From: Psammoneis japonica
Taxonomy: Eukaryota
Assembly: GCA_008632985.1 (NCBI GenBank)
Contig: QPGO01000030.1
Coordinates: 1 to 63,814 of the forward strand
DNA: 63,814 nt
Reading direction: 5' to 3'
The notes under the pieces were generated by a model. It made no database searches and was not told where the DNA came from. It was given only the letters and a program-made list of their open reading frames with translations. This document shows positions 14,909 to 50,469 of the stretch, piece by piece. The position numbers and the translations under genes are program-made. Each line of letters opens with the position of its first letter. The stretch's first letter is position 1.

Positions 14909-16159
14909 GAAAGCACCCCTAATATGTAACAAAAAATACAAGGTAGTGGCAGGCCCGGGAAAGATTGATGAAGCCCAAGTGCTGCTACTGTGATTCTTCC
15001 CAACAACACTCTACAATGTGGCTGCTCCACCTTAGTTTTTCCCGGCCGTGTGGTCCCATGCGGGTAGGTTGCTTAAGAGCCATCGTACATGCACCTCCGG
15101 CTGGCCAGCCGCGACCTTTAAACAACCGTTGAGATGGCGTTCCATTCACGGGTCCGTTGGCACACTGAATGCCTTGTCTGCATGAAGCTGGAAGATAGAA
15201 AATGGAAGTCTCACACCTGTTGGTGGCCACAGCAGTTCAGCCGTGGACACTTGAAAAAGCTCGATTCTCCAACTGCAGAAGCCAGAGGCTGAACCTTGGT
15301 CAGCCACAGATGATCAATTGTTTTGAAGTGTTTGCGCCAAGAATGACTCTGGTTCAGCAGAGAAGAGGGCAGCACCGTGCCATCTTTGCCACCACATTGC
15401 TGGCCTCAATGATGCCAGCTGCCATCAAGAAGATGCCCATTTCATAAAAGCATGCTTCAAATTCTTTTTGTCTCAATGGCCATCTCAACAAAAGAGAACT
15501 TGCTGCCTCACACTTCATTTCTCCTGCTGCCAGTGGCTTTGATCTTGCCAGCAACGGTGGCACAATGAGTGTGGCAGCACTTCATTTCAGGCCATTGACC
15601 TTCTTGAACAAAGCAGCCTGGCAGCATTTCAGTGCCATTGTTGCCTGCAGCAAATCATCCAAAAAAAGAGTCTGACAAAGATTTCACTGCTGCTCCAGCA
15701 GACCACCAAAACCCCCCAGGTTGTGCAAAAAGAAAAATCCAAGAGTGCAGCCACTTGTGGAGATTTGCTCTGCACTTCAGCCACAAAAGCCCAGCCACAA
15801 ACATGCTGTGCTGGTGCTGGAGTCAGCAGCAGTCACCCTCCTTGCTGTGCAAACACAGCAGGACTCACAAAAAAGTTGGCGATGCTGACTTTCTGGACAA
15901 ATTGGAAGTCAGGCTCCTCAGCAAAGTTTGTCTTTGCCCACCATTTGTCACCTGGCACTGCTGTCATTCCAGCAACACACTTCTGAACAGGCAGACAGAA
16001 GGGTTCTGTCAAACAACAGCCAGCCACTCAGCCAGATGAGAGCCAGGAGGCTCTGCACGCTGCAGGCTTCTTTCTTCCTGTGCAAGAAGGGTTTTTGTTG
16101 TTGAAGGTGCAGAGCATGCGCAATTTCTGAGGGAGACATTGAGCCATTTTCAAAAGTGT

Positions 16160-17205
16160 CACACCAGCTTCAGCTCCAGGTGAGGCGCGCATGGGCTCAA
16201 CTCCCACCACTGGCCAATTTTTGCATTTGGCGCAATGAACTTCTTCAAAATCATTTTTTCCTAAATCCAAGGGTGAGTGTGCAAAAACTTTTTTTTTTCA
16301 CACTCACCTTTCCATTTTTGAGACAATCAAATTTGAAGAAGTTCAATGTGCCAAACTGCACGCCAGAAAATTGGCGCCTCTTGTGTGATGGATTGCTCAT
16401 TGTCTGGGACTGGAACAGGCCATGAATGCCATCACATGGAAATGACAAAAGACTCATGATGGGGTTTTGTGCACATGAGGTGCCTGTTCTAGCTCCAGGC
16501 AATGCGCACAGGTTTGATTCCCATCATTTGCCCATTTTTGCATTTGGCACACTGCACTTTTTCAAAATCCGTTTTTTGCCAAATCGAAGGGTGAGTGTGC
16601 ACTTTGCACGTGTTTTTGGGTGCACTGAAGCATGCACGCAGACAAAAGGTCATTTTTGTCACGCCCTTTGTGACATTTAAAGGCTGCAACATGTCGCTGT
16701 GACACATTGACTCTTGTCAGTGGCTGTGTGTTGCACTCCTCCCCATGTGTCACGCGTCCACACGGCTCTTTGCTAACGTGCACTGACACTGCACGGTTTT
16801 GGCGGAACAGTGTGGGTGTGCATGAAGGAGCACACAGAACTGCACAGAGTTTTGCGCGTTCGACAGTGATCAACGTTGCTGCAGACAACTCCCACTCAGG
16901 GTTTCGAACCCCTGGCCTCCTGCCCAATGGTTGCGATGAACCACTCCGCTGTGAATTCACAGTGCAGCATGCATGCAGACAAAAGGTCATTTTTGTCACG
17001 CCCTTTGTGACATTTAAAGGCTGCAACACGTCGCCGTGATGCATCGACTCTTGTTGGCAGCTGTGCATTGCAGCACACTTGCCTTTCAATTTTTGAAACG
17101 ATCAAAATTGAAGAAGTTCAATGCACTGGGCTGTGCAGGAAATCAGCCTCTCTCCTCTCTCGTGATGGAATTCTCATCACCTGGAGCTGGAACAGGCCAT
17201 GAGAT
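16160..17205. repeat. Two diverged ~320-bp tandem, internally palindromic (foldback-like) units; the second is split by the TRIM
   Basis: 16213-16285 resembles 16531-16605. 16299-16360 resembles 17073-17135. gg(g/a)(a/g)ctggaacaggccatga occurs at ~16410 and ~17185. Hairpin ggtgagtgtg...cacactcacc. Confidence 0.6.
16626..17072 (-). mobile_element. TRIM-like non-autonomous LTR retroelement, copy 1, with internal tRNA-like sequence
   Basis: 110-bp direct repeats at 16626-16735 and 16963-17072, TSD GCAC on both sides, PPT complement ctcctcccc at 16736-16744. Confidence 0.9.
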
Positions 17206-17595
17206 GGGCACAGAGCGCAGCAGCTTTTGTCTCTTGCAAACACGAGGTGATTTGACTGTGCATGTGAGACCCCTCTCATCATCAGGAGTTGCTTCTTTGA
17301 AGTCCAAACACATTTGTTTGAGCCGACAATGGCATTGGGTTGCCTGGCAGGCACAGTGGGCCTCAAAGCAACAGGGAGTCACCTCAAATCTGTTGAAAGT
17401 TGAAGCTGTCCCGTCGCGCTCGTGCGCGCAAGCGCGGTGCATCTGATTCCCACTGACGACTCTGGCGAAATGGACATTTTTGCATGCTGCAACACACGTC
17501 CGTTGAAGACATTCATTTGCCCTTTCCTCACATTAAAATGTTCAGCATCACATGTTGCATCTTGAGTTTACGGTCACAACTCAACGGACAACCGA

Positions 17596-17740
17596 CTTTC
17601 AACAAAAAGTTGTTGAAAGTTAGATCTTTCAACAAAAAAGTTGTTGAAAGTCAGATCTTTCAACAAAAATCTGTTGAAAGTTAGATCTTTCAACAAAAAT
17701 CTGTTGAAAGTTGCATCTTTCAACAAAAATCTGTTGAAAG
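17596..17740. repeat. Palindromic minisatellite, 5 x ~30 bp (ctttcaacaaaaa(gt/tc)tgttgaaag + 6-bp linker)
   Basis: Read directly from the sequence. Confidence 0.95.
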
Positions 17741-18770
17741 CCGACATCGTTTTTAGGGTTGCGCTGCAGTCGGGCAACACAAAAGTCAAAGATCGTGACG
17801 AGAACAGCATGAGCGATGCATGCCTTGCCAAAGCCTGAAAGCATGGCGTGAAGTTGGCTCAGCAGCTCAGTGCTGGTTTGGTGGTTTTTAGCAGAAGCAG
17901 TTTGACAATTTATGGCGGCAGTTTCAAAGGTTGTGGCTGCAGCTTCAGAGTGTAAAGCACGGCAGTTTCAGAATTTTCGGCTGCAGCAGTTTCAGAATTG
18001 TCAATTTCTTGAAATCTGCCAGCAGTGGAGCACCTTCAATGGCTCCAAGTGAGCCGCCGTCCAATGTGCTTTGAACCAAGCAAAGCTCCCACCTGGCAGT
18101 GATCTGTCTCCGATCTCACCCAGTGCGTGGTCAGGCGCTGTCTACAGCTCCAAGCGAGAATCATCCCAGTGCCAAACCATTGGCTGCTCCATCCTCTGAG
18201 CCTGGCAATCCCATCTGCCGTTCCGAGTCTGGGTCCCAGCATGCTGCACATTGGGTGGTTTCATCCTCGGATGAAAGTGCCAAGTCATGAGCAACTCCGT
18301 CAGTCACACCGAGGTGTGGACACGGCTCAACACGTCACGTCTCATTGAAATCAACAGAGGACTTAGAAGTGAGAATGTTGGTGACAGCACCACTGAGAAT
18401 CGAGTGGCACTGGCCTGCATGCTTCGTGCGCACTGTCAAAAAAAATTGAAATTGCTTCAAGGTTTCAAACAAAACAGAAATCCACAATTCTCAATGACGC
18501 ACAATGGGACCAACCCAGAAGGATGCATTGTGCAATTGCTCCCAACAATGAAAAAAGAAATGGGGAAAATGGTGCAAGCATCATTGAGATGTCACGCCAT
18601 GAAGTGGACACCGTCTGCTCGCTTCATTGTGCTCGCTGCAGTTTGCTGAGTGTGGCAAAGTGCTGCAGCAAATGCTGCACTCAACGATGAACAAATGTCG
18701 GTCATGCAAACCTGTCTTTGATGACATCGCTTTTCCAATCAGATTTTCATGCCGACAAGTTTTCTGTTGA

Positions 18771-18933
18771 AGTTGTTGAAAGTTACGTCTTTCAACAAAA
18801 AGTTGTTGAAAGTTGCGTCTTTCAACGAAAAGTTGTTGAAAGTTGTGTCTTTCAACAAAAAGTTGTTGAAAGTCACAACTTTCAACAAAAAAGTGTTGAA
18901 AGTTAACGACTTTCAACAAAAAGTTGTTGAAAG
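18771..18933. repeat. Second array of the same palindromic minisatellite (5.5 units, same orientation)
   Basis: ctttcaacaaaaagttgttgaaag units with linkers ttacgt, ttgcgt, ttgtgt, tcacaa and ttaacga. Confidence 0.95.
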
Positions 18934-19634
18934 TTATTTGGCGATAAGCTGCAAAGCTGGAGAAATGAGCTCATTCCTTTGCAGAGTGCAATTGTTCATT
19001 GCACATGTGTGATGGGCAATGGGCTAAATTTTGTACAGTCCAATTCGCCAACAGTGTCGTAATGCGGACATTGCAAAATTTTATAAAGTTATTCAAGAAT
19101 GGATCATTTCAATCTGAGTCGTAGTTTCAACAACTCTGAGGCGACTCCCAGAGGGTGGTGGCAAAAATGAGCGCGTCGCCACCAATCAAGAACAAGCGCG
19201 CTCGACCATCCTTGCCGTATCGCGAAAATTTTGCAGGGGTGAACAAAGTATCAATTTGTCTTCATTTTTGATAGTAAATTTTGTATCGATTTTGAGATCA
19301 GAAAGTATTTTGAAACCTTTCGAAACATTAAGGGCACCAATATGTAAATATGCCAAATTCTCATAAATACCCTTTATCTCAACGGTCTTCTCGAGGTTTG
19401 GCGCGTATTTCAAGTCTATAAAGCAAGCTTCTGACATATTAATAAAGTCTATACAGTAATATTTGTCCTATCGCTGTTGAGCGTTACTTTTGAAAAATTT
19501 AGTCATAGCACTCGCAAATGCGCGGGATTCGCCACGCCGTCGTTGACACTGTATCTATGATACAGTACTCTACGACGACAAGCTACCCAGCCTCCCTCTC
19601 AAATAGAGAACATAGACCATGACCTCCTTTCGTC

Positions 19635-25639: not shown

Positions 25640-25860
25640 GCAACCCTGTAGAGTCTAGTATGTGTTCTACGTCAAAAGAAATCTCACGCACATCAAGAGC
25701 ATCAGACGGCGGACTACGCACGGACCATACGAAAATTCTGAGAGCGCTCGTAGAGATAGAGCGAGCGGAGCCCTGACCCTTTCATTTTGTGATTGCTTCT
25801 CGCGCTCTCTCTCCACTCTACTCTCTCTAGTAGAGTCATAAGTCCCTCTTTGGTTAGTCG
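25640..25860. repeat. Weak TA/AG/CT-rich island 5' of ESS2
   Basis: gtagagtctagta, tagagatagag, ctactctctctagtagag. Confidence 0.45.
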
Positions 25861-27099
25861 CACATGCTGTGTAGAAAGCACTCTTACATGTGTGAAACAA
25901 AAAAGAACACAACATGTGCTTCCACTCAAACCTGTGCAGAGACTCACGAAGACGAGCGCCGCTTCTGACATCATCTTGCGTTGAGTCGTGTTGTTGTGAT
26001 GATCCTCACAGCGACCCCGAGGCCTGCCCACAATGCACAGCATAGACTTGATCATGTGCAACTTGTGCCACCAACCCAGCTCAAACAAGACTTGAAATCA
26101 TGCCCCACACTGCTTTCCTCCACCAACTGTGCACTTGAGGCCAAGAACTCTCAACTGTGTTTGGCTTTCTTCGTCTCTAACATGTTTCCGTGCTCAACCA
26201 GAGCAATGATTGTCAATTGTTGAAAATTCCACACATCTGCCTGTTTTGTCCACCTGTCTTCTTGGTGAATGGATGCTCATGCTTGTCAGCAACAATTGTC
26301 AACTTTGAATTCACTCAATTGTTTTTTCTTGTTTTGAGCTGCCTGTTCTACATTGAGTCTGCATTGTTGTGAACTTGTTAAGTTTGCATGCAGTTCAACC
26401 ATTTTCTCTCCCATCGTCAGCTTGTTCTCTTCTGTCTTGCTTTGTTCATGCCACGTCTGTCCCTTTTTCCCCCTGCACACACCACAAGATGCATGCCGAC
26501 CTCAACTCCGACAAAGACAATGGTGCACCCTTGTCGCAATCCACTCTGTCCCGGTCAGATGTCTGACAACAACAATCAGTGTGCTCTCCAATGACATTTT
26601 CAGAGGTGTTCCCAGTGCTCTTCCTTCTTTTGTTTCCCCAGTGCTCTTCCTTCTTTTGTTGTGGCCTTGAGACGATGCATCTTCCTCCCCCCATTGCTCT
26701 CTGAGTGAGAACTCTGCCTTGTTCTCATTGGACGCATCTTTGCCTTCTGGCCAATCCCGCGATTCAAGCGCTGCAGGATTGCTGTTCCTGTCTCTTGATG
26801 ATTTTGATCCATCCTCTCTCTTTCCTGATTGCAGTGATCATGAGTGTCAACCCCCCACTCACGGTGACCCCTCCTCCATTGAATTGCTTTTGGAGTGTTC
26901 CTTTGAGGACACATCCACGATTTTCATGCTGCGCCGGAGCCTCCTGACAAACTCAGTGCTGGCAGTCCTGCCCAAGCTCTCAGCGGTGATCACATTTTTT
27001 ATGATGATGTTCTTCTCTTCAAGGAGGAGTTTGATGTGCTCTCAACACAACATTCCGTGTCATCCTCTGACATGGATGATGAGGCATTGCATCATTTTG

Positions 27100-27645
27100 A
27101 TGCACTTGAGTTGGAGGAGATGGAAGAAGCTCAACTGTTGCACCCTCCCTGCATTCAAGAAACCAATGCCACCAAGAAGCTTCATCCAGTGGAGGAAGAG
27201 TTGGTCATGATGATGAAGAAGCACCATCTTTCCCACGGTTTGTACAAGGCTTTCCTTTCCTGGGCTAAACGTGCCAAGGAGAGTGACTGTGAGTGCAAGT
27301 CTCTGTCCCATTCTACAGCCTTGCAATGCATGAAAGCCAAGCATTTTGATTTTGTTGGGCCAGAGCCCATTTGCTCCACAGTGAATTTGGGTCTTGATTT
27401 CACCCCAATGCATGTGTGCCATTTTTTCCTTTCTCCATCATGTGAGAAGGGTGTTTCATGATCCACAGGTTGTCCAGTCTTGTCAGTGGACAGACAACAA
27501 GAAGCACTGCTCCCAAATGAACGAATGCATTTGCAACTCTCTCAACACTGGCAACTGGTGGAAGCAAGCCGAGAATGATCTCAAATCTTCCCTTGCTGAA
27601 CTCAGCAACAACTGTCCATCTGGGTCACACCGTGTTTGCCCAGTC
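27100..27645 (+). pseudogene. Plavaka-like DNA transposase N-terminal relic
   Basis: Frameshifted translation ...GLYKAFLSWAKRA...HVCH/FSFLHHVRRVFHDPQV...ICNSLNTGNWWKQAE...RVCPV resembles the Plavaka 'l.tg.ww...piil' region and stops abruptly at ~27645. Confidence 0.55.
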
Positions 27646-29734
27646 AGGGAGGTCTCCAAGATTTGGCACCACAAGGAGAGGCAGCAGTGACAATGACAGT
27701 TGACATGTCTGGCTTGCTCACACAAGATGCATGGCTGCAATTTGCTGTGTTCCAGTGGGGCAGCAAGGGAGATGCATCAGACTCTGGCACATCCACCTGC
27801 ACCACCAAACATGTCGTCATTGTCAACCATAGAATGCTCTTGCCCCTCAGTCTCATCTTCCTCCTGTGCATCTGTGTCTGCTTGTTCTTCATGCTTGGAG
27901 GGTGGGAAAAGGATTTGTTTGGCTGGGGGAAGTGGGTTTCTGTGGCCAGTTCCAATGGTGCATTCCAAAAAATCAAGAGTGGGTCCAACGGGGACATCCA
28001 TTGCAAGAGAAACTGAACCTGCAGTTGCGGCAACAGCTGGCAGATTTGGTTCCTCTGAATCCAAATTGTTGTCAGAGGAAACAAAGGCAAGCCTGTGCCT
28101 GGAGTGGGGGTTGCTGGGATCATTCAGAGTCCCATCCAGTGCATGGTCAGAGGTTGCAACAATGTCGCAACACTTTGTGAAATGGGCAACATCCTGGGCA
28201 GCATGCTTCTGTTTCAATTTTGCCAATGGGACCTTGGCAAGGCAATGATTGCACAAATGGGAGTGTTCCTGAGAAACGTCCTCATTGGCTGCATCACTGC
28301 TTTTGGGCGCAACTGGCACATCCTCCATGTTGCACAAGCCATCAATCAGATCATCCTTGTGGTGCTGGAAGATGCATGTGAGGAGACACTTTACAGTGAT
28401 CAACTGTGTGAGTGCCTCCTGAACTGGACTGTCCATGCAGTGGGTCACAGTTGACCCATCCTTCTTGGTGTAAAAATCATTGACTTTTTGGTGGCTCTGT
28501 TTGCAGTCATTCATTGGCGTTCGCGCATGACAGAGACATGCAACGGCAGCTGGAGGCAAGAAAAACTCTGCCCACAGAGACAGCACCAGTCTCTCAAAGT
28601 GGCAGGTGATGCACAGATGGGTGGCTTTGCGTCAGTGTGTGCAACGGCTCTGTTTTCCTTGACAGCCAGTTCAACTCTGGTGGGACGGTCATTGAACAAG
28701 TTGACAGGAGTGCACTGACCTGTTGGAGATTCATGAACCACAGAGCCATCATGAGAGACAGAGAGAAAAGTCCAAAATGAGGGGAAGACAGTTTGCATCA
28801 CCTGGGTTGCCATGATTGGGTCCGCACACACTGCCACATTTCTCAAAAGTGCTGTCCAGGGCTGAGTGAAACAAGGCACTGCCGGCCTTGGGTGGCAGAA
28901 TGTGTTCAATTTGTGTGCGGATGTGGGAAGCAAAGGTGTTTTGTTCTTGATTCATGAAGTTGAGAGCCGACGGGCCAACCTTCTCCCAAAACTTTCAAAA
29001 CAAACTTCAGGTTTGTTCAACCATTTGTTGTCTGACCTCTCCTTGTCATTTTTTGGATTTTTTGGGAAGACATGTTCCCAAACCATCAGGGCAAAGGGAC
29101 ATTCAGAGTTGACACCAGCATCCAGGAGAGAGTGGCAATTCATGGTGTTGCCGATCTCTTGTTTGGATGGAAAACCCAGAGAGAAAAGAAGCGAACAACC
29201 AACTTTTGAGTTGCCAACCTTCTTCACAAGGTTGTTCTCCAAATTTGTCATTTCGCTGGCATGAAGGGGCTGTTTCTGGGCTTTCTGGAGTGAGGACATG
29301 GTCTTTTTTTTGCTGCGGCAATTTCTTGTGCCACAGTCCTTGTGCTTCTTCTGCAGTTTCTTGCACATCTTTTTGTTTTGGTTTTTGTGCAGGCCATGCA
29401 TCCGCCAGCAAAACAAAAGCCACACCCTGCAATCTTCACCGGACATTTCATGGGGTTGATGGCAAAAACGGCAAGATGCTCAGAGGCTTTGAGCAGATTC
29501 GGAGTCTTGCAAGAAGGGATTTTGTCACGCTCATTGAGAAATTCAACATCCTCTTTTTGATTGAGTGGGGAACAGTTCTCAGGCACATCATCAGAGGAGT
29601 CAACACTTCTTTGTTGGTGGAGGCAAGATTGGCGGCAGCAGCTGCAAGGTTGGCAGCAGGAGGAGCAGCCACGGATGGAGAGCCTTGTTGATGCTGAGGT
29701 CAGTCCCTGGTGCCTTGCCTGGGGGGTGGTCCAG

Positions 29735-30127
29735 CAGTGTTTCCCAAATGTGCATTTTTGGCTGGACCAAATTTGCATTTTTGTTGAACCAAAACACTTT
29801 TGTTGACCAAGTTGCCAGACCGACCAAATCAATTTGGTCGACCAAATTGACATTTGCGAAATCTCGACCAAATTCATTTCGTGCACATTTCCACACAAAT
29901 GATGCTGACACAGCTTCTACAAAATTTGCATGGCATGCAGACATGCATGTTTTCCAACTTTCCAGCCAACGGAAGATTCCTGCCAAAAGTGCGCCAAATT
30001 TCCCCGACCAAAATGACGTTTTCGGGAAACAAAATCATTTTGGTTGCGAGCTTCAAATTTGTCAACAAATTTGGTTTGACCAAAATGCCAATTTGGTCCA
30101 ACCAAAATGCACACTCGGGGAACACTG
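29735..30127. mobile_element. hAT-like MITE with ~55-bp imperfect TIRs
   Basis: Left cagtgtttcccaaatgtgcatttttggctggaccaaatttgc matches the reverse complement of right gccaatttggtccaaccaaaatgcacactcggggaacactg. Internal gaccaaa/tttggtc motif repeats. No clear TSD. Confidence 0.7.
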
Positions 30128-33100
30128 GTGGAAGGAGATTGGCCTGCTGTTCAAGCTGAACGAGCAGCAGCACCGCCACAACCTCCACAATGGCCACTGG
30201 TGCCACTGGTGCTGGGGGAAGTGTTGTGGCCAGCAGCTGGTGGGTTCATTTTCTTCCTTTTTCTTGGCGGCATGGTTGATGAGGAGCCAAATGGAAAGAA
30301 TGCAGGAGAATGAAGTCCCAGAGAAGGCAAAAATGTGAAATTGTCAATCTTGACAAGAGCAGTTTAATGTGACAATTTGACAAGTGTGGAGTGCACAATG
30401 GACACTGATGAACAGACAACTCATCAAGGTTCATTCAAAAATTTTCAAAACTTTGCATCACAAAAAAAAGATTGAATTTTAAAACAAAATGGGTGCAGAA
30501 AAAGAGACAGATGGGGAGTCAATGGAGATGGAGGTTCACCGTCAGGCTGAAAACACGAATTGTCCCTCCCTCACAAGACACAGAAAATGAAAAGTCAAAA
30601 TGATGAGCCTGGAGAGAGACAGTGACAGGCACGGCATGGCGGCTTGAACAGGATTAAATGCAAGACACACCAAAGGTGAGAACGACAAAACAAGTGGCGA
30701 GTGCATGGAGTCAGGACACGCAACCCAAACAACTGACACTTGCACGCACCTTTGCAAGCAGACGTCAAGACAAGTGCAATGGGAGCAGTGCCAAAGGACG
30801 AAGCAGCAATGGAAGATGGGCAGCAGGGACCAGTGATTAGGTGAGCTGAAGCAGCAAGTGAGCCAAGATTGCAGGACAAATGTGCAACAGCCAATCGTTG
30901 GCACAGCTCCATCTTCATTTGCAGGCAATGCTTTGAGCCAACAAAACAGGAGGGATGCAAAGATTGATTGTTGGAGGGGCTGTGTCATTGCCTGATGCAG
31001 ATGCACTTGGAGAGAGCAAGAGCGGTGTCAAGGGAGGAAACGGGGGACGAACTCATCACGCAGGTGGTGTCGGGACTGCAAAAGACAACAGGTGCTGGCA
31101 AATGCAGGAGATGGTCAAGAATGGGATGATGGGGACATTGTCAAGCATCTGGAACAGAAACAAATTGACAAGACATTTAGAAATTGTCATTGTTGCAAAT
31201 GAGCAATGCAAGGATGGTGTTGCAAAAATGTGGTTGTTGAGATCAAAACAGGAGCAAATGACAAGTTTCGCTGACCATCATTTCCCGCTTGGAAGGTCAG
31301 TTTAATTCTGGACAGATGCAAAATCAATGTTGAAATGTGCAGGAACACAGAATTGTCAAGAATGCATGCAGAAAAAGTGCAAAATCCATCAAGCATTAAA
31401 TCCCACTTGGAATGTTGAAAAAATGTTAAAATTGCTTCATGTGTGATTGACAAGCAGTTGTCAAGAACACAGGATTCTTAACAAGCAAATGTGAGTTCTG
31501 AACAAGAGCCACAATGTTTTCCAGATGTTCATGGTGAGCTCTCCTCTTGCTGGTGCTTGTGCCAGCCAACATCACAGCTGCTCTCGTCCTCTCCCACTCT
31601 GCCCCACACTCTTCTGCTTGTCAGGGATGTCCTCAGAGTGTGACTCAGTGTGCTTTTCAGCAGTGCTCCTCTGTTTTTTGTCTCCTTGCCACCACGCCCA
31701 TGTTCTCTTCCAGAGCATTTTGGCGCATTTCCTGCCACTCAAAAAGCCAGCTGGGCAGCCTTGTTGCCCCCATGTTTTCACCCCAATCATCTGGGGGCAA
31801 CCCCTCTCACCCTGCCCTCTGCTTTGCACAGTGACAGCTGCAGGTTCTTGATCTTGTTTCTTTTGATTTTTCTCAGGGCCAACACCTCCTCTCGCCACCA
31901 CTGCCTGCCCCAGGTTTGCCTGCTTCTTTGTCAAAACAAGAAGCCCCAGCATTGCTCCCAGTTGCTGGCATCAACTTTTTTTCAGCTGAACACAAACACT
32001 TTGTTTGGCAGCTGACAAAAAGGTTGTTGTGTGCCACAACAGCCCTGCTCCACTCATGCAGCAAAATGTGCTTAGCGCTCCCTCTGACAGCACAAACCAA
32101 AGAAGGGCTCCTTTGTCAAGAACCAGTGCAGTTCCCTTGCAGCGCTGTGCTTGCACTGGTGGGGCAAGATGTTGCTCCAAAATGAGCACACTCTAAAAGA
32201 CCAAAAGCCTTTTCTCACAACATGTTTGCATGAACCACCAGCACAGAGCCTGGCAAATCCAGGCAAGGCAACTTAAAGGAGTTGCCATGCATGTCAGACA
32301 TGACATGCTCACATCCTTTCTTTCCAATGTCCACAATGATGCCAACCCTTTTGTCATTCATGCAGATCCACTGGGCATGAGTCAGCGCATCTTTCCAGAT
32401 GCTCCTGCAGTGTCCAAGAGGTTCTTGGCTGGCAATGAAGTGTGGTCACATGGTTTCGAGCACACCCACTCACAAGAAACAACTGCAATCAGCTGTCAAT
32501 CCTGCCAGCCACATGAAACTTTAAACTTTGTTGTGCTGAGCACAAGGCAACAGTGGATTGCCAACTCTTCATCTTCTGCCAGCACATCTGCAAGAGAGAG
32601 CAACAATCTGCTTCTGTTGCCTGCTGGTCATCATGCCTGAGATCATCAGAGCATGAATTGCAGCAATTGAGGCTGCCTGTCTCACAGTGGTTTTTGACCT
32701 TTTCACAGGTGACAAAAAAGTGCTGCAACAGATGGATGGTTGTGCACATGGTGACAATGTGTGAACTGCAATGGACAAAGTTTTGTTGCCATGGTGTCTG
32801 ACCCTTCTCCTGTGAGAGCACTGTTTTGCTGTGAAACAGCCACCCAATTTCCCCATGAGAGTGCCCACCCTCTTTCCCTGCAGAACCTGACGATCAAAAG
32901 CATTTTCATTTCAACGTTGCACATTGACACTCATGTTTCATGTGAATGATGCGATGCATTGTGTTTGCAGTTTGTCAATGAATGCAAATTTGCTGCTTTG
33001 CCATGAGCTGTTCCACGTTTTCAACGGGCGCAGTTCCTTTGCCAGACTTCTGTGACTTCTTGTTCACTTTTGTCATCTTTGCTTGAACTGTCTCCTTCTT

Positions 33101-36100
33101 TGTTGTCTTCATTGTCTCTTCCTTTTCCTGTTCTCTCCTCCATGGCTGTTGTCCTTGTCATTGCCAGAAATCTCCACTGTGGCTTTTTTTGTCTCCTGCT
33201 GTGCCGGTGTTTTCTTGGTTTTAGCTTCCTTGCCCTTTTCATCACTTTTCTTCTTGTTGTTGGCACTGCACCCTGTGTTGAGCTGTGCACCTGGCTCACT
33301 TGCCCTGTTTTCCTTTGCTGCCTCATGCAGCTTGCTGAATTGCTGCACTCCTTCATCTTTCCACAAAATGCGCTGTCTCTTGACAGGTCAGTGTACAAGG
33401 GTGCTGGGGTTTCTTCCTTCTCCTTGTTGTTTCTGTCCTCATCTCCCTCTTGAATCTTCTTGTCCTTCATGGCCTTGCACTCCTGATTTTCTGGTGGTTT
33501 TCCAATGTCAACAGCCCCAGAGCCTTGTTCCTTGCTGCAGTTGGCTCTGTCACCTTGGCGTTTCTGGTCTTCACCATCTTTCTCTGCACAGGAGCTCTCA
33601 ATGAATTTTAGAACATTGTTGCAGAACCATGTGTGTGCTTCCTTGTTGGCCCATTTCTCACACACAATGGTGTTCACAGTCTTGTGCTCCAAGTTGGCAG
33701 GAATGGTTTTTCAGCATTGCTGCTCTTCTTTCTCTCCTTTTTTGCTTTCTTGTTGCTCTTTTCTTTTGCCCACAGATTTCCTTGGCTTCTTCTTCTTCTG
33801 TCAGCATGACTGGTGCTGGTGCAGATGAGTGCAATGTCAGCAGCATCATTTCCATTGCCTTGTTGGCAATGTGTCCCACAGCACTCACCACTCATTGCAC
33901 TCTTCATCATTGGCTGCATTGCAGTGCTCGTTTTCATGTTGATTGCATTGAGGCTGCACTTTTTTGCCTGGTCTTCCCACTTCCTTGCCCAGTCTTGCTT
34001 GCTGAAATTGCCACTGGCTGTGTTCTTGCATGTTGGCCATGAGACACCTTTCCATCACTCAGCATGTGTGCCTTGACAAGGAATCCTGCTTTCAAAGACA
34101 GCTCCATCCTGGCCACCTCTTTGATCTCTCTCCTGAGAGATTGGTTTGGTGGCTCATTGGCCAATGGTTGTTGCTTCCTTTTCTTCTTCCCAGTTGCCTT
34201 CACAGGTTGCAGTTTGTTGTGGACTTGTGTTGCAGCAAACGCATTGCATGTTGGGCTCTGATGAGGAAGCCCGGCATTGTTGATCCAAACCTTTTTTTCA
34301 TGCTGTGTTTGTGATGCTCTCACCAATGCTTTGCATGTCTTGACTGCCACCCAGCAAAATTAACAAATGAAGAGTTTTGATGTCAAGCAACAAATCTGCT
34401 GCTGTTTGCATGGTTTGTCAATGGCCAGCAATTGAACATTCAGCTCAAACTAATCATTTAAAACTGTCTGCAGACATTTTTGAATTTAATTTTTTGCCTC
34501 ATGTCCACATCATGTAAAATTGGCCAAAGTGCACACACAAAAATTTTTGTCTGCAAAAGTTTTTGTTTGTGGAATGAACAAATTGCACACAGCCTTCCTC
34601 ATTTTCACAGCCTGTTTTCAATGTGGTGCAACAAGTTTTTCCAGTCCACTGTCTTGCAAGCCTTGTCCAAAAGGACCATGCAAAAACCGCTTGCACCATC
34701 CATCGCAAGAACAACCAGTCATGTCATCAAGTGCATTTGTCACATCACAAACGCACTTCCACAAAATGCTTCACATGACTGTGACAGAGTCTGTCTTTCT
34801 TTTCTTTACATTCAAATTTGCAACGGCATCTTCTTGCTTGTTTTCACAGTCATGCTGGTGATCATGATGCAGCCTCTCTTTCCCAGATCATCTTCAATGT
34901 CCAACCATTGACCATCTTGGGAGCCAATGTGAAGAGCTCCATCCTGTTGCAGATCCAAATGTCTTTGGGCTTTGCATGAATTGATCCACAGTGGAAAATG
35001 ACGCCAGCTTCCTGGCATCAAAGTAATGCCTTTTTTGTCCATTGCAAGTCCACAAGCACCTCCAGAGCTGCCACCCATGAGGTGTCCACACTCTCCATTG
35101 TCATTCATTCCACAGGCAGGCAAGTGCCCATCCTTGAAATCTTGTTCATCTCATGAATCCCTTTTGTCCATGGCCAATCATGTGTCTTCCCCCTTGACCC
35201 AGCGGCACACTCATCTCTCAAGTGCTCATCATCTCCATGGTTTTCACAATGCAAACTGCACACTTCCCTTGCCTTTTCTGGCGGGTTTTGACAATGTTCC
35301 AAAACCCTGGTTTTGTGTGTGTTCCTTGCACATTCAACAATCACATTTTCCCAGTTTGAGTCATCATGGATGGAGAACACAGGTGTGGCAGCAGACATGT
35401 GCACCTGTTTTGTCTCCAAGACATGCCTTCATGGTGTCCTCCTTGGACCCAACTTCATCCAACTCAAAAACATGACAAGAAAGCTGTTGACAAATGTGCG
35501 CTGCTCTTTCTGGGTCATGACCTTCCAAAAAATTTTTGGGAACCAACAAATTGCATCATTTTTCTCATGTTTGATGTGATGCATGACTGTTTTGGTGACA
35601 AAGCATGTCCCATGAAGGTCATGTGCTTGGCTGTTGATCAGGGCAAGGAGACTGGTGCACTTCAAAAAATGCAAACAAGGCTTGCCTGTGAGTGGATCAT
35701 TGGGGTCCTTGCTGGCAAGACTTGGCCATTGCCTTGATGTTGTGGCAAAGGGTGTGACAATGATTCCTCTCCTTTCCTGTCTCTCCAGGTGTCAAGGAGA
35801 AGAACTTGTTGTCAAAGAACAAGTTCACCTTTTTTGCTGGATCTCTTCATTGCCCAACAAGAGTCATGATGCAAGACCACATGTCTGGACATCCAAGAAA
35901 TTTCCTTGCATTGTTGTTGGTGTGGACAGCTTCTGCAACACAGGGAACATGGCAAAGCTTTGGTTCATGGCAAAGGAAGGGAGGCACTGAGAATTCCAGA
36001 GAGGGCACCAAATTCATTCAATCCACACACTGCTTTTAGAGGCACACATTGCAGCTGTGCTTTTGAGCTTGGGTCCAAACAGCTTCACTCCAAAACCATC

Positions 36101-39100
36101 AGCAAAGTGTTCCATTTGATCAAAATTAGCATGTCATCATCAAAGTTGAATGAGGGATCAGGGTCACCTCATTGGCCAACAGGGCAAAGTTGTTGACTGC
36201 CATGGCTGGCTGAATGCACATGAATTGCAACAGCACATGCACTTGCCATTTGATTTTTGGGGAGAGGGTGTGCTGTTGTGAAGTGTGCACAAAATTGCGC
36301 TTGTAAAAAAGGTGCTAAAAACACAGTGGACAATTGGGCACAGAAATCTGGAATCAAGAAATGAGGGCAAGTGTGCACATGATGATGACTTGGGTGGGCA
36401 TGGACAAGATGCCAGTGTGCACAATGACACGTGCACAGGTGTGGAAAAAGTAAAAACCATGTTCAGCTGGAAAGCATCAAAAGAAAAGCCATCCATTTGT
36501 CACAAAAAACGCATGAAATGAAAAGCAAATTGAACATCAAATGCAACTCATTAAAGCTTTTGTCAGAAAAGGCAACAAAACTTCAGATGAAACACAAAAA
36601 TCAAAAGCATCACAAAAACCACTGCTGCTGACATTTTTTGCATTGAAGTGGTTGCAACTTTGTCAAAAAGTGCAAAAATTCACAAAGAAAAGCAGATGCC
36701 CCATGTTGCCCCTCTGATGATGGCTTGGCTTGTCTGCAGACTTTGTGCCTCCTGCACTTCATCTGACCAGGTTTTTGGCCTTTACTTCACTCAACCTTGT
36801 TGTGCTTCAGGTGTTTGCAAGTTTGCTCCAATTTGTCAACCTGCTTGGTGTGCAAAATGGACCACACCTTTTTCTTTCACACTGTGAGCTTTTTTGTGGC
36901 ACTCAGTCAGCTTGTGTTTTCTTCAGCCTTGATGTCATGAGGCTTGACCTGGGCATGTCTTTGTTGCAAATGCTGGCACCTCTTTCACAGTCATGCTCAT
37001 CAAGGGAGATGTCAACATCATGAGCATTGGCTCACAGCCATTTTCCTGCATCATCTTGCTTGACTTTTCTGTGTGAGATTGACTTGTTTTGTGTTGCTGT
37101 GCAAGCTGCAACTTTCTTGCTTCTCTCCTTTTTCTCTCAGCAGTTTGCACACAGATTGTGCAGAGCACTTGCTCTTTTTAAAAGTGAGCATTGCACCACT
37201 TGTGTGCCCTGCATGAGAAAATGCCACAAATGTTGCATTTTTGGGATGGTGGTGTGTGGTCCTTTCAGGCAGTCTTTCTTTGGCCAGTTGGCAAGTGCAC
37301 CCATTGACATTTTTTGTGCCTGACAGCTTTGAAAATCTGCACCTTGAAAGAAAACAAGTGGCTTTGTTTGTTTTTGTGCATCCCCAAATTTTGCACTTTG
37401 CTCTTCAAATAAACCCTGTTTGTTGTCACATTTGTGAAGAATGTGACCAACCACATCAATGGCCACTTAGAACAGCCACAAATGTGCTGTGGGCAGTGGG
37501 TTTCTTCACAACAGGTGGGAGCAATGTTGGGGAAAGACACTGCACAGAAAACAGGTCATTTCTGGTGTCTTCCAGAGCACGTCAAAAAGGTGTCTTTTGT
37601 TTCAAGGTGTTTGGGTTTTTCTCTTTTTGAGGGTCTTTCTTTTTGAGTTTTTTTTGTGAGGTGCAGCAGCTCTGGTGCTGAGCATGATTTGCACTGCCTG
37701 GCAAGACTGTGGCAGTCCATTAAATTTTCACAAGTGCTGCCATTGGCAAGTGCTGCATCTCATTCCTTGATGACTCTGCAGCTCTTGCAATGGGGAGAGC
37801 AGGCATGCATTTTGAGGCCAAATCAGGGGAGCAACAGGCATTGTTTGCAGGGACATGCAAAAATGGCTGCATCCAATGGGTGTCACACACAGCACCAGTT
37901 TGAAGATGACAGGAAGGAGATGGGCTGGTGTCCTTGGCAAATGTCATGTGGTCATGCAGCAAATCAAGTGGATTGCAAAAAAGATGCAAACATTCCTGAG
38001 TGACTGGGGTGCTGCAGACATTGTTGTCATTTGGACAAGCAGTGCCATGTGGCATGGGAAGCACCCCATGAGATGGACCAGGTGGATCCACTGAGAACTC
38101 AAAAGTCACCCTCACATCTTGTTAGAGCAGCCCTCCCTGACTGTAAATGGTGGAGGTTCAATGTGCCACTTGGCTGCTGTTTCTTTGTTCTTGTTTGCCA
38201 TTTGCTCATCACTTGTGACACATGCTTGTCTCTTGTCTGCTGTTTCACCTGACCAGACCAAGAGAGTCCTCAAGCCAGGACAAAGAGCTGTGAAGAACTT
38301 GCACACATGCTGCTTTTCTTGTGTGCACACTTGCTTGTTGTCTGCCACATCTCTTTCTTGCTTTGCTGCTCTCTCTTCTCCTCCCATGGACACACACCTT
38401 TCTCACCTCTCTTTCCCTCCCTTTGTTTTGGGAAATGTGGCATGCTTTTTTACCAGCAGCACATTTGTGCTCTTTTTTCCTCTGAGAGGGTGAAAGTTTC
38501 TTGTCACCCACCACCAGCGCTGTTGAAAGGTGCACAGCAGTGAGAGGCAAGTTCCAGCAAGTGCATTAAGGCAGCCAGCAGTGGTCAGCAAGGGACAGGG
38601 ACACACAACTGTCTCTCAAGCTCAGACATTTGTGCACATGACAACAACAAAATCAACAAGCATCAAAGGACATGCCTTTGCACAGGAGCCTCTTGTTTGG
38701 AGCTGCTGACAAAGCACTGCAGCAGGTTGCTTCTGAGACATTTGCTCTGCAAATGGCTGCAAGTGTGCCCCTTCCTGTCCGAAACAAAGAACTCTTGAAT
38801 GGCTGTTCATCGCAAAGAGAGTTTTTGGACATTCCTGCAAAGCAACAAATCAAGAGGTGCTCCTGGTGCCATTCATTTGTGTGGCACTTTAAAAAAATGG
38901 GGTGCACATCTGCAGTGCATCTGCTGATCTGATGCCTTTTGTTGTTTGCCTTTTTTTCAAGGCACTCTTGTGAGCAGCACAGAATTGCAGTGGCAGGTGG
39001 CAGGGCAGATCAGCAGCTTTTGTGAAAAGGAAGTGCCAATCAGTTTGCTTGGTGGCATGTGAGCCATTGGTCAAGAGTTGACAGAGTGCACTGGCTTTAA

Positions 39101-40714
39101 CATGATGCAACAAATGCAGTGTCATCTTGTCAGAGTGACACAGACCCCACTTCCCATCAGCTGTTGAGATCCAACGTGCCACCATTGGCCAAGATTCTGA
39201 ACAGTTTGTTGCTGTTGCAACTGTTGCAATCCCAAGACAAAATGAGCTTGTGCAGCGGGTTTATTTGGGTGGGTGCCAGCTCCAGGTGCTGCCCAGTCAG
39301 TGACTCTTTTTCGTTTTTGTGCTTAAAATGGTGGTCTGGAAATGCAGGAGCACCATCCTGGGCTTTGGACAGCCACAGGGTCAGAGAACTCACAGGAAGC
39401 AGTGCTGCACTGTGCTTTGGCTGCTGCACACCTGTCAAAGTGTCCAACACAAGGCCTTTGCCGCAAAGGGCCACTCCAGGAAGCCCTTGTGGAAAGTGCA
39501 ATGAGGCAGGAGGCCTTCAATGCAGGGGTGCTTGAGGTTCTTGTGACTTTGTCTTGAATTCCTTTGGAGTGCCTTGTCTGCAAATGTCAAAGAATGTTCC
39601 TTGAGCTGCGTCTTGGCAAAGCCCCCCTCAGCATTGTGCCTTGAGCAAGCCAAGGCATGGCCCTGGAAAGCCCTTGTCAATCTCTGCTGCACACTTTGTG
39701 CGAGCCCACATTTTGGCTTCATGAATCTGAAAGCAAGACATTCTCAATGCTGATTTCATCCATGTGAATTTCACCTCAAGGCCATGATGTTCTGTGGGAT
39801 GCTATGGGGCAGCTTCAAATGTCCATGGGTGGCTCTTTTGGTGCTCTGCCAGTGTGAACACAGAGAGCAATCTTTAGCTGGGCTACTTTTGACAGCTTCC
39901 AAACACAAGTGCTTGGGTTTTCTTCTTTGGCTGCAAATCTTGAAATTCCCACTCTGTGTGATGTCATGCAAGTCCTCAACAGCAGCAGGACAGCTCTCTT
40001 TTGGTCATCCCATCACAACAAATGACAGCACGGCTGAGCACTTTCTCCAAGATGATGCTGACAAACACCAGACTGCCAGCCTCAGCCAGTCTGGAACAAA
40101 TCATGTCATCATTCTTGGCCAGACAGGTGCCCAATGCAAGGGCATCATTGTTTGACTGGACACATGGACAAGTGTGCCATTGTTGTCAGTGGTGCAGACA
40201 AGCTCATTGGCAGAGTTCTTTTTGACTTGGAACATGAGGTTGGGCACACACAGGTTGCCATCCAGACACTCTGGATTTGTCCAAGTCACCCAAGCTGTTC
40301 ACTAAATTCTCAATGTGCATGACCACATTTAGCTGCCACATGGCCAGCCACCAGCCAACCTTCCAAGAAAGTGCTGACAACAGCCCCAACCATTTCTGGC
40401 AAAGCAGGTGCCAAGGATGCAATCACCGCAGCATTGTGCATCATCAGCACCGCCCTTGTGTCGTTGTTGGCAGCCGGCACTTGACTTGACTTCCTCACAT
40501 CTTTGAAGTGTTTTGGCTGGTTGTTGAGCTTGCTGTCTCACTCTCCAGGGGGCACTGGTGTGCAAAAGCGCCAGGTGCAAAAGCTGAGGAGCATGAAAAT
40601 GAAAAAGAGGATTGGATTTGCAGCCATTGTCCTTGCACAGTTTCCACCACAACAAGAAGATGAGCACCAACAAGCTTTGGTGCACAACGGGCATTGTCTT
40701 GTTCCCTGGCAATG

Positions 40715-41154
40715 TGCAACACACAGCCACTGACAAGAGCCAATGCATCACGGCGACGTGTTGCAGCCTTTAAATGTCACAAAGGGCGTGACAAAAATGA
40801 CCTTTTGTCTGCATGCATGCTGCACTGTGAATTCACAGCGGAGTGGTTCATCTCGCAACCATTGGGCAGGAGGCCAGGGGTTCGAAACCCTGAGTGGGAG
40901 TTGTCTGCAGCAACGTTGATCACTGTCGAACGCGTAAAACTCTGTGCAGTTCTGTGTGTTCCTTCGCACGCACCCACACTGTTCCGGCAAAACCGTGCAG
41001 TGTCAGCACACGTGAGCGTGGGTCGCGTGATGCATGGGGAGGAGTGCAACACACAGCTGCCAACAAGAGTCAATGCATCACGGCGACGTGTTGCAGCCTT
41101 TAAATGTCACAAAGGGCATGACAAAAATGACCTTTTGTCTGCACGCATGCTGCA
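40715..41154 (+). mobile_element. TRIM-like non-autonomous LTR retroelement, copy 2
   Basis: 110-bp LTRs at 40715-40824 and 41045-41154 (TG...CA), TSD AATG on both sides, PPT ggggaggag directly before the 3' LTR. Confidence 0.92.
40830..40900 (+). ncRNA. tRNA-like (Pol III type-2 promoter) sequence inside the TRIM; homolog at ~16890-16957 on the minus strand
   Basis: A-box-like agcggagtggtt and B-box ggttcgaaacc within a caggg/ccctg T-arm stem. The anticodon arm is not convincing. Confidence 0.6.
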
Positions 41155-42882
41155 AATGCCCTTTTCTTCGCTGTTGTTGCCTCTTTGATTGCCCCCAGCA
41201 ACAAGGAACAACAGCACACTGGTGCTGAGGGCAACCACACTGTGGCCAGGCCATGTGTGAGGAAAAAGGCCAGCTGCCCATGCTGCGTGTCCACTGCAGG
41301 ATTCCACAGAATCTCGTGAAAGCCACAGAAGCTGTTGCGCCCCCCCCCCACTTGTGTGTTGCTCTCTAACCCCCTTCAATGTGCCCTGTGTGCCAGAACA
41401 AAATCTGAGCTCCTTTCTCAGCAGGCAGTGGATTCTGCGTGCCTGTGTGTGGGATGCTGAGCAGCTTTCTTGAGAGCCATCAAAGGGTGCTAAGGATGGA
41501 GGGTGGTGGCTGTCAAACAAGAGCATGGAGTTGTCAGATGCCCTGGTGCATGCTTGTCAATGTGAGGAGCAGTGGCCTCATGGTTGCCGCCTCCCTGGGA
41601 TGACAACCAGCTTGCCTGTTGCATCTGCTGAGGTCATCTGCCAAGAGTGCTTCAATGTTGTGATGCACCCCACACAGCAAAACAGCGCTCATTTTGCAAG
41701 TCTTGTCAAAGGCATGGGATACATGGCAGAGTCCAGGAAAAGAGCTGTGAGATTGAGCCTCACCTTTCTGATGATCACCATCTCACTCTTGCCCACCCCC
41801 AAAAAACAGCAAGCTGTCTCCAACCAAAATTTGAGAAAAAGGCAGAGGGTCGTGCACAGAACAGCCTGTTGAACTTTCAGAACATGGCATTGTTGCAACA
41901 CTTGCAAAACCCAGTTGTGTCATCAGAAGCATGTCAAGCTCAACATGATTGAGTGTGTCAACAACCTGCGCACTGCCTGTTTTTTGCCGCACAGACAGCT
42001 GCTCTCTGCGCTGGTGTGTGCGCTCGGTCTCATCCAAAGAAAGTGTGTGCTTCACTTGTTCTCCACAAGCACAATGCATCTTGGAATGTGGCCAGTGTGA
42101 GATTGCATCCAGCCCCAAAAATCTTTGCTCTTGTTGCTCTGTGCACAGCTCTGCTGCTCCTGGCACACCTGGCTGGCACAAAAAGGGCAGATGTGCAGCA
42201 CTGCTGCAGCCTGGCTCCTGCCGCTGGCAGAGCAAGCTCAGCTGCAAGCAACACTTTGTGCTTGATGTGCACAGACAGCAACGTGCTTGGTCTGCACAGC
42301 AGCGATGCACTTGGTCTCCAACTGCAATGGTTGACAACCACCAAAGTCAAGGCCATTGGAGGGACCAACATTTTGGAGTGCTTGTGTGCAGGAACGTGCT
42401 CGCACACGAGAGTTTTGTGCTAAGCTGTCGGGATGTCATTATATATTCTTATATATATATTTTATTCTAACATCGGTTGGCGCCACATTGAGTACACAAA
42501 GAAGGATACTGAATAGTGACATATTGTGAAAAGATACCAAATCTCGATTTATAACCTAAAGATACTCATAGAGCATTAGCAAGCACAACCGTTACGGTAC
42601 ATACACATACGGTATATTTTTTGGAAATTTGCTCTTGCGCCACGAAAGAGAGGATCGTGAAAATGCATATACACATATAAAAATATGTATAGAGTCAAAT
42701 AACCCACGATTGGCGACGCATTGCGAAGAATCATCATCATACCGGTAGAAGGAGGACCTCCTAACATCAACAGGACACGCCACACCTCATCGTCCTACCG
42801 GTACCTATCGTTATCGTTGCTGTTTAGTTTTGTGTGATCGTAGGTATTGTAACAGGGAACATAACGGGGAGTATAAGGCACC

Positions 42883-50321: not shown

Positions 50322-50469
50322 CAGGTTTTGCTTTTTTATAACTCTAGCACTGCATTACTCAGAACAGTTAGTTTGTAGTTGTTGTTCGTTCGCATTACAA
50401 TGTTGCTAGTAGAATTACAACTTGGTGCTTCACTGGACGGAGGGAGGGTCGTACCATAAATTCGAATAC

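Follow-up and report, generated by a model that had tools for sequence, protein, structure and literature searches.

To our knowledge, fungal repeat-induced point mutation (RIP) was until 2026 the only genome-wide hypermutation defence against repeats to have been described outside animals. RIP changes C to T mainly at CpA, creating TpA and lowering the G+C content (PMC2621366). A process of the opposite sense was then reported in a preprint by Mettrop et al. (bioRxiv 10.64898/2026.01.13.699255) for Bigelowiella natans, the integrated viral DNA of which undergoes A:T to G:C hypermutation at TpA only. In the mutation-accumulation lines of that study, 231 of 302 new single-nucleotide mutations fell into two integrated viral regions, and 230 of these 231 were A>G or T>C changes, every one of them at TpA. 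They arose in some lines only, at a rate of about 6e-7, about 1000-fold over the background. Besides 124 clusters of genomic windows poor in TpA and rich in CpA+TpG, the same preprint describes 324 coding sequences in which TpA has a frequency of 0.0018; transposon domains are enriched among the TpA-poor ones. Its authors propose DNA adenine deamination, with an ADAT2 homologue as the candidate enzyme, and state that ADAR favours U before the edited A. Here we describe a 63,814-nt stretch of DNA from Psammoneis japonica (GCA_008632985.1, contig QPGO01000030.1; hereafter the window), which contains three sharply bounded blocks almost devoid of 5'-TA-3'. Judged by its flank genes, the window represents a second, distantly related lineage with a change of the B. 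natans type. A first, sequence-only reading of this DNA had held that no system of the kind was described; the preprint makes that statement out of date, and our literature search found no report of TpA loss in repeats other than this one.

Dinucleotide observed/expected ratios (o/e) were computed in 1-kb windows and pooled over the three blocks (22,227 nt in total) and the flanks (41,587 nt). The pooled TA ratio was 0.06 in the blocks (94 TA) as against 0.63 in the flanks, that of CG 0.25 (320 CG) as against 0.97, and that of TG and CA alike 1.76 as against 1.12. The G+C content was the same in both (0.478 in the blocks, 0.477 in the flanks). AA/TT showed no depletion (o/e 1.28 in the blocks, 1.13 in the flanks), and AT stood at 0.77 compared with 0.90. 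At the level of single windows, the TA ratio was 0.00-0.13 in 20/20 block windows and 0.33-1.26 in 39/39 flank windows, two sets without overlap, and the mean TG/CA ratio over the 20 block windows was 1.56-1.96. The edges of the blocks are sharp, lying within about 100-150 nt (Table 1). At block 2 the final flank TA is found at 25885 and dense TA resumes at 42421; in block 3 a single TA (63705) follows 62153. The earlier description of TA as nearly absent, CG as rare and TG/CA as saturating in three blocks was therefore confirmed by both the pooled and the windowed ratios, blocks and flanks not being alike in TpA. The TpA frequency of the blocks is 0.004, compared with the 0.0018 given for the TpA-poor coding sequences of B. 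natans, and all 20 block windows fit the TpA-poor, CpA+TpG-rich type of that preprint, with the reservation that our ratios per window follow its Rho in spirit only.

Two observations concern the surroundings of the blocks. The intergenic stretches 47001-48000 and 50001-51000 show the reverse bias, with a TA o/e of 1.29 and a TG/CA o/e of 0.7-0.9; unprotected non-coding DNA of this genome is thus TA-rich, which makes the contrast with the blocks sharper. Runs of TATATA at 42440-42470 directly abut the right edge of block 2.

Table 1. Blocks, transposase relic, converted codons and repeat copies in the window.
Feature	Position	Strand	Basis and remarks
Block 1, TA-/CG-depleted	~15200..19020	.	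TA o/e 0.02-0.13, CG o/e 0.16-0.62 (1-kb windows); edges by TA positions
Block 2, TA-/CG-depleted, the flagged region	25890..42420	.	TA o/e 0.00-0.11, CG o/e 0.02-0.41, TG/CA o/e 1.6-1.96
Block 3, TA-/CG-depleted, continues past the window end	62155..63814	.	TA o/e 0.00-0.08, CG o/e 0.33-0.45
Plavaka-type DNA transposase relic, N-terminal region, first frame	27039..27446	+	own HMM, iE 4.3e-24, HMM positions 45-180
Plavaka-type relic continued in other frame, frameshift near 27421	27421..27645	+	own HMM, iE 1.1e-14, HMM positions 172-246; tblastn agrees
Conserved Tyr (13/16 homologues), now Cys, TGT	27288..27290	+	relic alignment
Conserved Tyr (16/16), now His, CAT	27309..27311	+	relic alignment
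Conserved Tyr (15/16), now His, CAT	27342..27344	+	relic alignment
Conserved Tyr (12/14), now Cys, TGC	27417..27419	+	relic alignment
Conserved Tyr (7/9), now Cys, TGC	27532..27534	+	relic alignment
~330-bp repeat, 1.3 periods (111-nt unit, core, 111-nt unit)	40714..41154	+	inverted relative to block 1 copy
Second copy of ~330-bp repeat, in block 1	16623..17072	-	self-comparison of copies

The direction of the change could be read from a transposase relic in block 2. A codon-periodicity scan singled out 26883-27371 on the plus strand. Pfam searches of the six read-through frames of 25870-29470 and a word-indexed protein search with 26907-27461 returned nothing; a later phmmer search of 1.84 billion representative proteins, for which 26907-28106 was translated through its stops, gave 12 matches at E <= 1e-3, the best at 8.3e-14, with identities of 33-43%. 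The Plavaka transposase domain PF18759 is present in 4 of these 12 at E <= 0.01 (three exceed the Pfam cut-off, one is weak), and five full-length relatives of one match carry it as well, one of them being named Plavaka transposase by its source. A hidden Markov model (HMM) of our own, made from 7 Plavaka-type homologues of 638-1156 aa, matched two overlapping intervals in different frames (Table 1) and found no match beyond 27039-27645 in the six-frame window, so that the remaining transposase is absent. Apart from the frameshift, the relic bears an in-frame stop, and PF18759 itself, element ends and target-site duplications were not found in the window. By homology, what 27039-27645 preserves is part of the N-terminal region of a DNA transposase, as a truncated relic and not an element.

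Polarity was assessed over 95 conserved columns among up to 16 homologues of the relic. Among them are six conserved Tyr columns: one is kept as TAC, and the other five have become Cys or His (Table 1), with no other residue. Two columns are conserved as Arg, one of which is kept as CGT and the other (27526) now reads Cys TGC, a CG>TG change. As Tyr has no codon free of TA, a functional element cannot have been TA-free. The overall composition agrees. The loss of TA (0.0390) and of CG (0.0410) together amounts to 0.0800, and the gain of TG+CA to 0.0802. In a conversion model, 90% of the flank TA and 74% of the flank CG were turned into TG or CA in silico, and the outcome correlated with the block k-mers at r = 0.98 (k=2), 0.969 (k=3) and 0.955 (k=4); conversion of CG only or TA only gave r = 0.85-0.87, and no conversion 0.67-0.75 (k=2-4). 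The fixed differences, namely the Tyr codons, the mass balance and the G+C content, thus give A>G / T>C as the direction. The suggestion that a second, domain-limited process turns TpA into TpG/CpA besides CpG decay was borne out by the conserved Tyr codons, the mass balance and the conversion model.

The same evidence bears on the notion of an inherited composition, according to which the elements arrived free of TA and CG from a foreign or viral source with its own bias. The blocks are indeed uniformly TA-poor and sharp-edged, with no intermediate state in the window. Yet five of six conserved Tyr codons now encode Cys or His in a relic that is frameshifted and interrupted, a working protein is not encodable without TA, and the k-mer spectrum of the blocks is that of the host flanks after conversion. 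The double differences between repeat copies described below also require an independent change in each copy, and at some of the window's TG or CA the other copies in the sequencing run show, among the rows listed, TA or CG. We therefore regard an inherited composition as very unlikely.

Both DNA strands have been hit. The TG and CA products of the relic alternate within 250 nt, and also within tens of bases, and when TG and CA are compared in stretches of 500 nt, the imbalance between them (mean z 0.01, sd 1.18, 43 windows) is no more than sampling noise. This excludes editing of a single RNA strand as well as a strand-coherent chemical artefact. APOBEC acting on complementary DNA (cDNA) and ADAR acting on double-stranded RNA edit retroelements in animals and resemble the present case in that they hypermutate mobile elements by deamination with neighbour preferences. 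Their marks, however, are strand-asymmetric and arise via an RNA or cDNA intermediate, whereas the change described here is strand-symmetric and the sole classifiable element is a DNA transposon. ADAR and other RNA-level editing accordingly fit poorly, given the interleaving of TG and CA, the lack of strand asymmetry and the DNA-transposase relic.

It could be argued that a sequencing or assembly artefact, either misreading of modified bases in heterochromatin or strand-specific chemical conversion, produced the pattern, since heavy base modification is likely in the DNA of the blocks and the sole run found may be the assembly's own sample. This appears extremely unlikely. Three contigs assembled from reads are identical to the block over 713, 556 and 820 nt, the alternation of TG and CA within tens of bases excludes a strand-coherent conversion, and the Tyr to Cys/His pattern, the context rule given below and the TG<->CA differences from copy to copy are unlike miscalls. 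The exactly matching contigs, at 27659-28371, 30860-31416 and 31832-32652, have a word depth of 32-35 compared with about 60 in flank contigs; the block, or its exact sequence, could lie on one haplotype only, contig depth being weak evidence. The flank position 25421 is covered by a single contig of sequencing run X1, which shows G instead of the A of the window (depth 60 of 60); run and assembly thus disagree at one flank site or more.

The TA that survive in the blocks follow a context rule. Altogether 74/86 surviving block TA are of the TAA/TTA type, compared with 625/1805 flank TA (Fisher p 8e-22). When survival was expressed relative to the flank density, with ancestral TA contexts assumed to be flank-like, TTAA reached 0.76 (26 of 34 expected), CTAA/TTAG 0.34, GTAA/TTAC 0.13 and ATAA/TTAT 0.065, and the other six TA contexts lay at 0-0.03 (ATAT 0 of 68). 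A two-strand model with one target per strand, the A of 5'-TAN-3', gave hazards in the order T 2.59 > C 1.90 > G 0.94 >> A 0.14 for the base that follows. The hazards were fitted on the survivors alone and then tested on k-mers without TA, for which the context model raised r from 0.953 to 0.973 (k=3) and from 0.938 to 0.957 (k=4). The TGA frequency, observed at 0.0243, was put at 0.0281 by a 50:50 model and at 0.0249 by the context model; for CAA/TTG the observed value was 0.0348 and the two models gave 0.0338 and 0.0354. The rule fitted on survivors thus also predicts the products. Moreover, the survivors are unlike fresh transitions at block TG/CA sites (chi-square 132, p 4e-24).

Next to a DNA adenine deaminase, the sequence-only reading had named error-prone patch repair of the Pol-eta type (A>G at WA), started at the mismatches left by deamination of 5-methylcytosine (5mC). 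Such repair would couple A:T mutation to methylated CpG, and both TA and CG are lost in the same blocks. The candidate nevertheless fits poorly: WA includes AA, and AA/TT are not depleted; the change is confined to TA and carries a rule for the 3' neighbour; and the loss of TA does not scale with that of CpG. We consider it a very improbable source of the pattern.

A change in thymine rather than adenine has more in its favour. A TET/JBP-type dioxygenase could oxidise the T of 5'-VTA-3' to 5-hydroxymethyl- or 5-formyl-uracil, and mispairing with G or error-prone repair would then give T>C, which cannot be separated by sequence from A>G in TAB of the opposite strand. 5-Formyluracil is mutagenic towards T>C. 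In addition, the sole classifiable relic is a Plavaka-type transposase, and Iyer and colleagues are said to have noted in 2014 that transposons of the Plavaka group travel with TET/JBP genes in basidiomycete fungi. On the other hand, Pfam detected no such gene in the window among 16 flank and 165 block open reading frames (ORFs), the 98% conversion of susceptible sites would require very efficient mispairing, and we know of no report of such oxidation driving saturating mutation. The authors of the B. natans preprint favour adenine deamination (bioRxiv 10.64898/2026.01.13.699255). On balance, thymine oxidation is an unlikely alternative.

The CG half of the signature is explained by the decay of 5mC at CpG. 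The pooled CG ratio is low, copies differ at CG<->TG/CA sites, and a conserved Arg codon CGN has become TGC; the CG o/e of 0.02-0.62, the gain of TG/CA and the context-dependent survival all resemble this process as it runs in silenced transposons. Among the surviving CG of the blocks, GCGC is 2.8-fold over-represented. CpG decay, however, leaves TpA alone, whereas here the loss of TA is more complete than that of CG; the methylation itself is presumed. In all 20 block windows the loss of TA is saturated, over the whole span of the CG ratio, and the two ratios are uncorrelated (Spearman 0.09, p 0.7). At 16.2-18.2 kb, for example, CpG decay is mild (CG o/e 0.53-0.62), yet the TA o/e is 0.07-0.13. 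As TA loss is saturated and CG loss variable, and as the two do not go together, two separate processes would be at work, that at TA being the faster or more efficient one.

Repair of methylation damage may affect a TA step in bacteria. In E. coli, very-short-patch (VSP) repair is regarded as the cause of CTAG depletion, and the likeness lies in a T:A to C:G change at a TA step in a fixed context, tied to the repair of cytosine methylation. That system is bacterial, genome-wide, slow and limited to one tetranucleotide, whereas the loss described here is regional, near-total and extends to all TA except TAA. A related bias could be imagined in which the T:G-mismatch repair that serves deaminated 5mC also 'corrects' T:G errors at TpA to C:G, slowly, in methylated DNA. 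The losses of TA and CG share exactly the same blocks and yield the same pair of product dinucleotides, as such a bias would have it. Against it, TA is saturated even where CpG decay is mild and the two are uncorrelated, although a loss that merely accompanies repair would be expected to lag behind the lesion being repaired. Furthermore, the B. natans rate, about 1000-fold over the background and in some lines only, points to an active, switchable process (bioRxiv 10.64898/2026.01.13.699255). Repair bias is thus quite improbable as the cause of TA loss.

Comparison of repeat copies within the blocks was based on five non-overlapping pairs, two unit-versus-unit pairs overlapping the first pair being excluded. 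The pairs show 123 differences, 86 transitions and 37 transversions. Nineteen TG<->CA double differences account for 38 of the 123 differing positions, compared with 10/819 in two control gene duplicates (Fisher p 2e-27). A double difference of this kind arises when one ancestral TA or CG is resolved on different strands in the two copies. The block copies have changed independently after their separation. Between the contigs of run X1 and the window, 1,858 changes are listed, of which 1286 are transitions and 572 transversions. Forty rows of differences between the window and other copies are listed, with 1,833 further rows beyond them; among the 40, most are at TG/CA, 7 adjacent pairs are of the TG<->CA type, and the other copies have CG at 6 single sites and TA at 5 single sites where the window has CA.

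The two control duplications are gene pairs in the flanks. The Patched-like duplicates 20797-23418 and 43975-46628 are 80% identical, with normal TA and a transition/transversion ratio (Ts/Tv) of 263/230, and the tandem pair 8104-9225 and 10122-11276 is 69% identical, again with normal TA and a Ts/Tv of 169/157. Both have a Ts/Tv of about 1.1 and a normal substitution spectrum. Since they keep normal TA, duplication alone is not the trigger. The description of the loss as 'repeat-restricted' is therefore too strong, two gene duplications (80% and 69%) being untouched. In this respect, too, the process departs from RIP. Both are transition hypermutations that are targeted to invading or repeated DNA, prefer certain dinucleotides, stop at sharp boundaries and wreck coding capacity. 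RIP, however, makes TpA and lowers G+C, whereas here TpA is destroyed and G+C stays constant, and RIP is triggered by duplication.

Taken together, we think it probable that a host process in a diatom-like genome, which changes the A:T of 5'-TA-3' to G:C, has rewritten the blocks, and that these are silenced DNA of transposon type or of foreign origin. Such a process would act on the DNA itself and on both strands, converting TA to TG when the A of the top strand is hit and to CA when that of the bottom strand is hit. How readily an A is hit would depend on its 3' neighbour (T > C > G >> A), as a consequence of which TAA would be spared, and TTAA would be almost immune because it presents TAA on both strands. 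In parallel, the slower decay of presumably methylated CpG to TpG/CpA would proceed in the same DNA. Together, the two would remove both self-complementary pyrimidine-purine steps with G+C unchanged, Tyr codons becoming Cys or His and CGA becoming TGA. As for the chemistry, a nucleic-acid deaminase, TadA/ADAT-like or of another type, may be recruited to foreign or silenced DNA and convert its adenine to inosine. DNA adenine deamination, which was also proposed for B. natans, is the most likely chemistry, and the adenine deaminase put forward in the sequence-only reading stays the leading candidate. The sequence itself shows the signature with its direction, strand symmetry, context rule and sharp edges, and shows that it depends neither on simple gene duplication nor on the extent of CpG decay; the enzymatic nature of the process, the identity of the enzyme and its targeting to DNA are what we infer.

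Several points weigh against this account. The preferences of known deaminases do not match the order T > C > G >> A: ADAT2/3 acts on A34 followed by G, C or A, bacterial TadA on UACG, and ADAR prefers a 3' G. The context rule presumes that the ancestral TA contexts resembled those of the flanks, and CTAG survives below the two-strand prediction, with 1 observed and about 9 expected. The polarised test comprises one 600-nt relic with 6 Tyr columns, and A>G on one strand is indistinguishable from T>C on the other. Finally, the supporting run may be the assembly's own sample and so would not be independent support.

The account of DNA rewriting by a host process further supposes that the blocks hold foreign or mobile DNA. 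The target is of this kind rather than host genes, as indicated by the Plavaka relic and the diverged copies and by the unaffected neighbouring genes and two duplications, with most of the blocks unclassified. Pfam found no transposable element (TE) domain in 165 stop-to-stop block ORFs of at least 75 aa, with only five sub-threshold chance matches. The coding-like peaks 33021-33710 (minus strand) and 63180-63560 (plus strand) translate to low-complexity charged sequence. A self-comparison in the purine/pyrimidine alphabet detected no hidden homology of the blocks to flank genes, so the blocks are not mutated copies of the neighbouring genes. In one public sample, 2275 contigs align to 24500-44400 at >=80% likeness, 533 of them at >=99%; the block sequences thus belong to diverged multi-copy families there, and the summed contig depths over the block, which are not copy numbers, were used solely to show many diverged copies. 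The claim that the blocks contain only TE-type material stands for one Plavaka relic and for the many diverged copies in the public run; the rest is unclassified.

Prominent among the repeats is a family with a period of about 330 bp (Table 1). The differences between its two copies are almost all transitions, with 9 TG<->CA double differences. Its core, 40831-41049 (inverted at 16736-16959), is CG-rich and has a tRNA-like GGTTCGAAACC box. The summed contig depth of the core far exceeds that of any other part of the stretch, the bin that holds it standing at about 60,000 and the flanks at 50-60; a 226-nt contig of run X2, which is RNA-like, covers the core as well. The family may be SINE-like (short interspersed nuclear element) or a satellite. 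Rfam at the gathering threshold over the whole window, Rfam at E <= 1 over 40500-41400 and ARAGORN gave no match, metagenome scans for the repeat gave 0 matches, and the fold of the high-depth core was no better than that of shuffles (z = 0.18). Elsewhere in block 1, arrays of a 30-nt tandem repeat are found at 17575-17770 and 18737-18932, about 1.1 kb apart. The contigs of run X2 cover the flanks and not most of block 2, which was not used as evidence of silence. One of them skips an 89-nt GT..AG interval at 43848-43936 in the second Patched-like gene, a short spliceosomal intron; X2 thus looks like an RNA library.

The Patched-like genes belong to a segmental duplication, 19830-23418 and 43054-46628 (74-80% identity), which carries a Patched / sterol-sensing-domain gene. 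A TA-free block immediately precedes each copy, and these two blocks share just an inverted repeat of ~450 nt. The tandem gene pair encodes proteins of about 495 aa each without a Pfam family, placed by the Protein Atlas near fucosyltransferase-like clusters. The window contains six uninterrupted ORFs of 1.5-4 kb. One of them encodes a GCP protein of 1319 aa, both domains of which lie in this single ORF. This protein has about 100 relatives at 35-51% identity, of which all those named by source are from diatoms (Cylindrotheca, Fistulifera, Fragilaria and Seminavis); the next tier of relatives reaches <=31% identity, for example 30% in Hydra. In the Protein Atlas, one flank ORF hinted weakly at Bacillariophyta, whereas a MAD1 query carried no information on lineage. 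On the flank genes, we assign the window to a diatom or a close relative.

The loss of TA has left its mark on the coding potential of the blocks. In six-frame translation, Tyr makes up 0.08% of the block codons as against 2.35% in the flanks, Cys 6.3% as against 3.5% and His 5.0% as against 3.1%, and TAA + TAG occur 3.1 times per kb of strand in the blocks and 19.7 times in the flanks. Of the stop-to-stop ORFs of at least 75 aa, 166/338 fall in the blocks. A geometric model with the stop density of TGA only expects 154 ORFs of at least 75 codons and 5.0 of at least 200 in the three blocks together; 4 of at least 200 codons were observed, counted in block 2 alone. Long ORFs abound in the blocks because TGA is almost the sole stop, and they are not evidence of genes. 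The swarm of long, Cys/His-rich and Tyr-poor ORFs pointed out at the outset is thus explained by the lost TA, as had been suggested, with the qualification that its size is the chance expectation and gives no evidence of genes.

Compared with the B. natans type, the likeness is close: in both, TpA alone is hit and becomes TpG or CpA according to strand, within regional bounds and in foreign or integrated DNA. The targets differ. In B. natans they are single-copy inserts of a giant virus and a virophage that still have 3.3% and 9.2% TpA, whereas here they are a DNA-transposon relic and unclassified repeats in a saturated state. De novo rates were shown in B. natans, whereas the present record consists of fixed differences in the sequence alone. 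CpG decay and the rule for the 3' neighbour are seen here; the words CpG, trinucleotide, TTAA and diatom do not occur in the main text of the preprint (bioRxiv 10.64898/2026.01.13.699255). Genes of B. natans, a chlorarachniophyte (Rhizaria), have on average about 8 introns of 182 bp each (PMC13746701), whereas the window has few introns and the nearest relatives of its GCP protein are diatom proteins. These likenesses would allow, as a tentative proposal that we hold to be possible rather than probable, that one DNA-editing defence, directed at the A in 5'-TAB-3' with TTAA immune, is common to diatoms (Stramenopiles) and chlorarachniophytes, being either ancient in SAR (Stramenopiles, Alveolata and Rhizaria) or horizontally mobile. 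Jointly with CpG methylation it would erase both steps with the base composition unchanged. In a bolder form of the same proposal, a single deaminase of dual specificity would cause both the TA and the CG changes.

What is new here is the saturated end state in transposon DNA, the independence from CpG decay and gene duplication, and the 5'-TAB-3' rule with TTAA immune. Transposon DNA is also a target of such a process. The process runs ahead of CpG decay, and gene duplication by itself does not trigger it. The three-base specificity, TA not followed by A, provides a testable rule for a candidate deaminase or thymine-modifying enzyme in vitro, and diatoms include species with established genetic tools. 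For genome annotation, blocks of this type lose their Tyr codons, gain long spurious ORFs and weaken homology searches, as with the 165 block ORFs in which Pfam found no TE domain; as a consequence, TE annotation and gene prediction are biased unless the conversion is considered. If the proposal of a shared defence is true, it would amount to a general eukaryotic 'editing immunity' that works in the direction opposite to fungal RIP.

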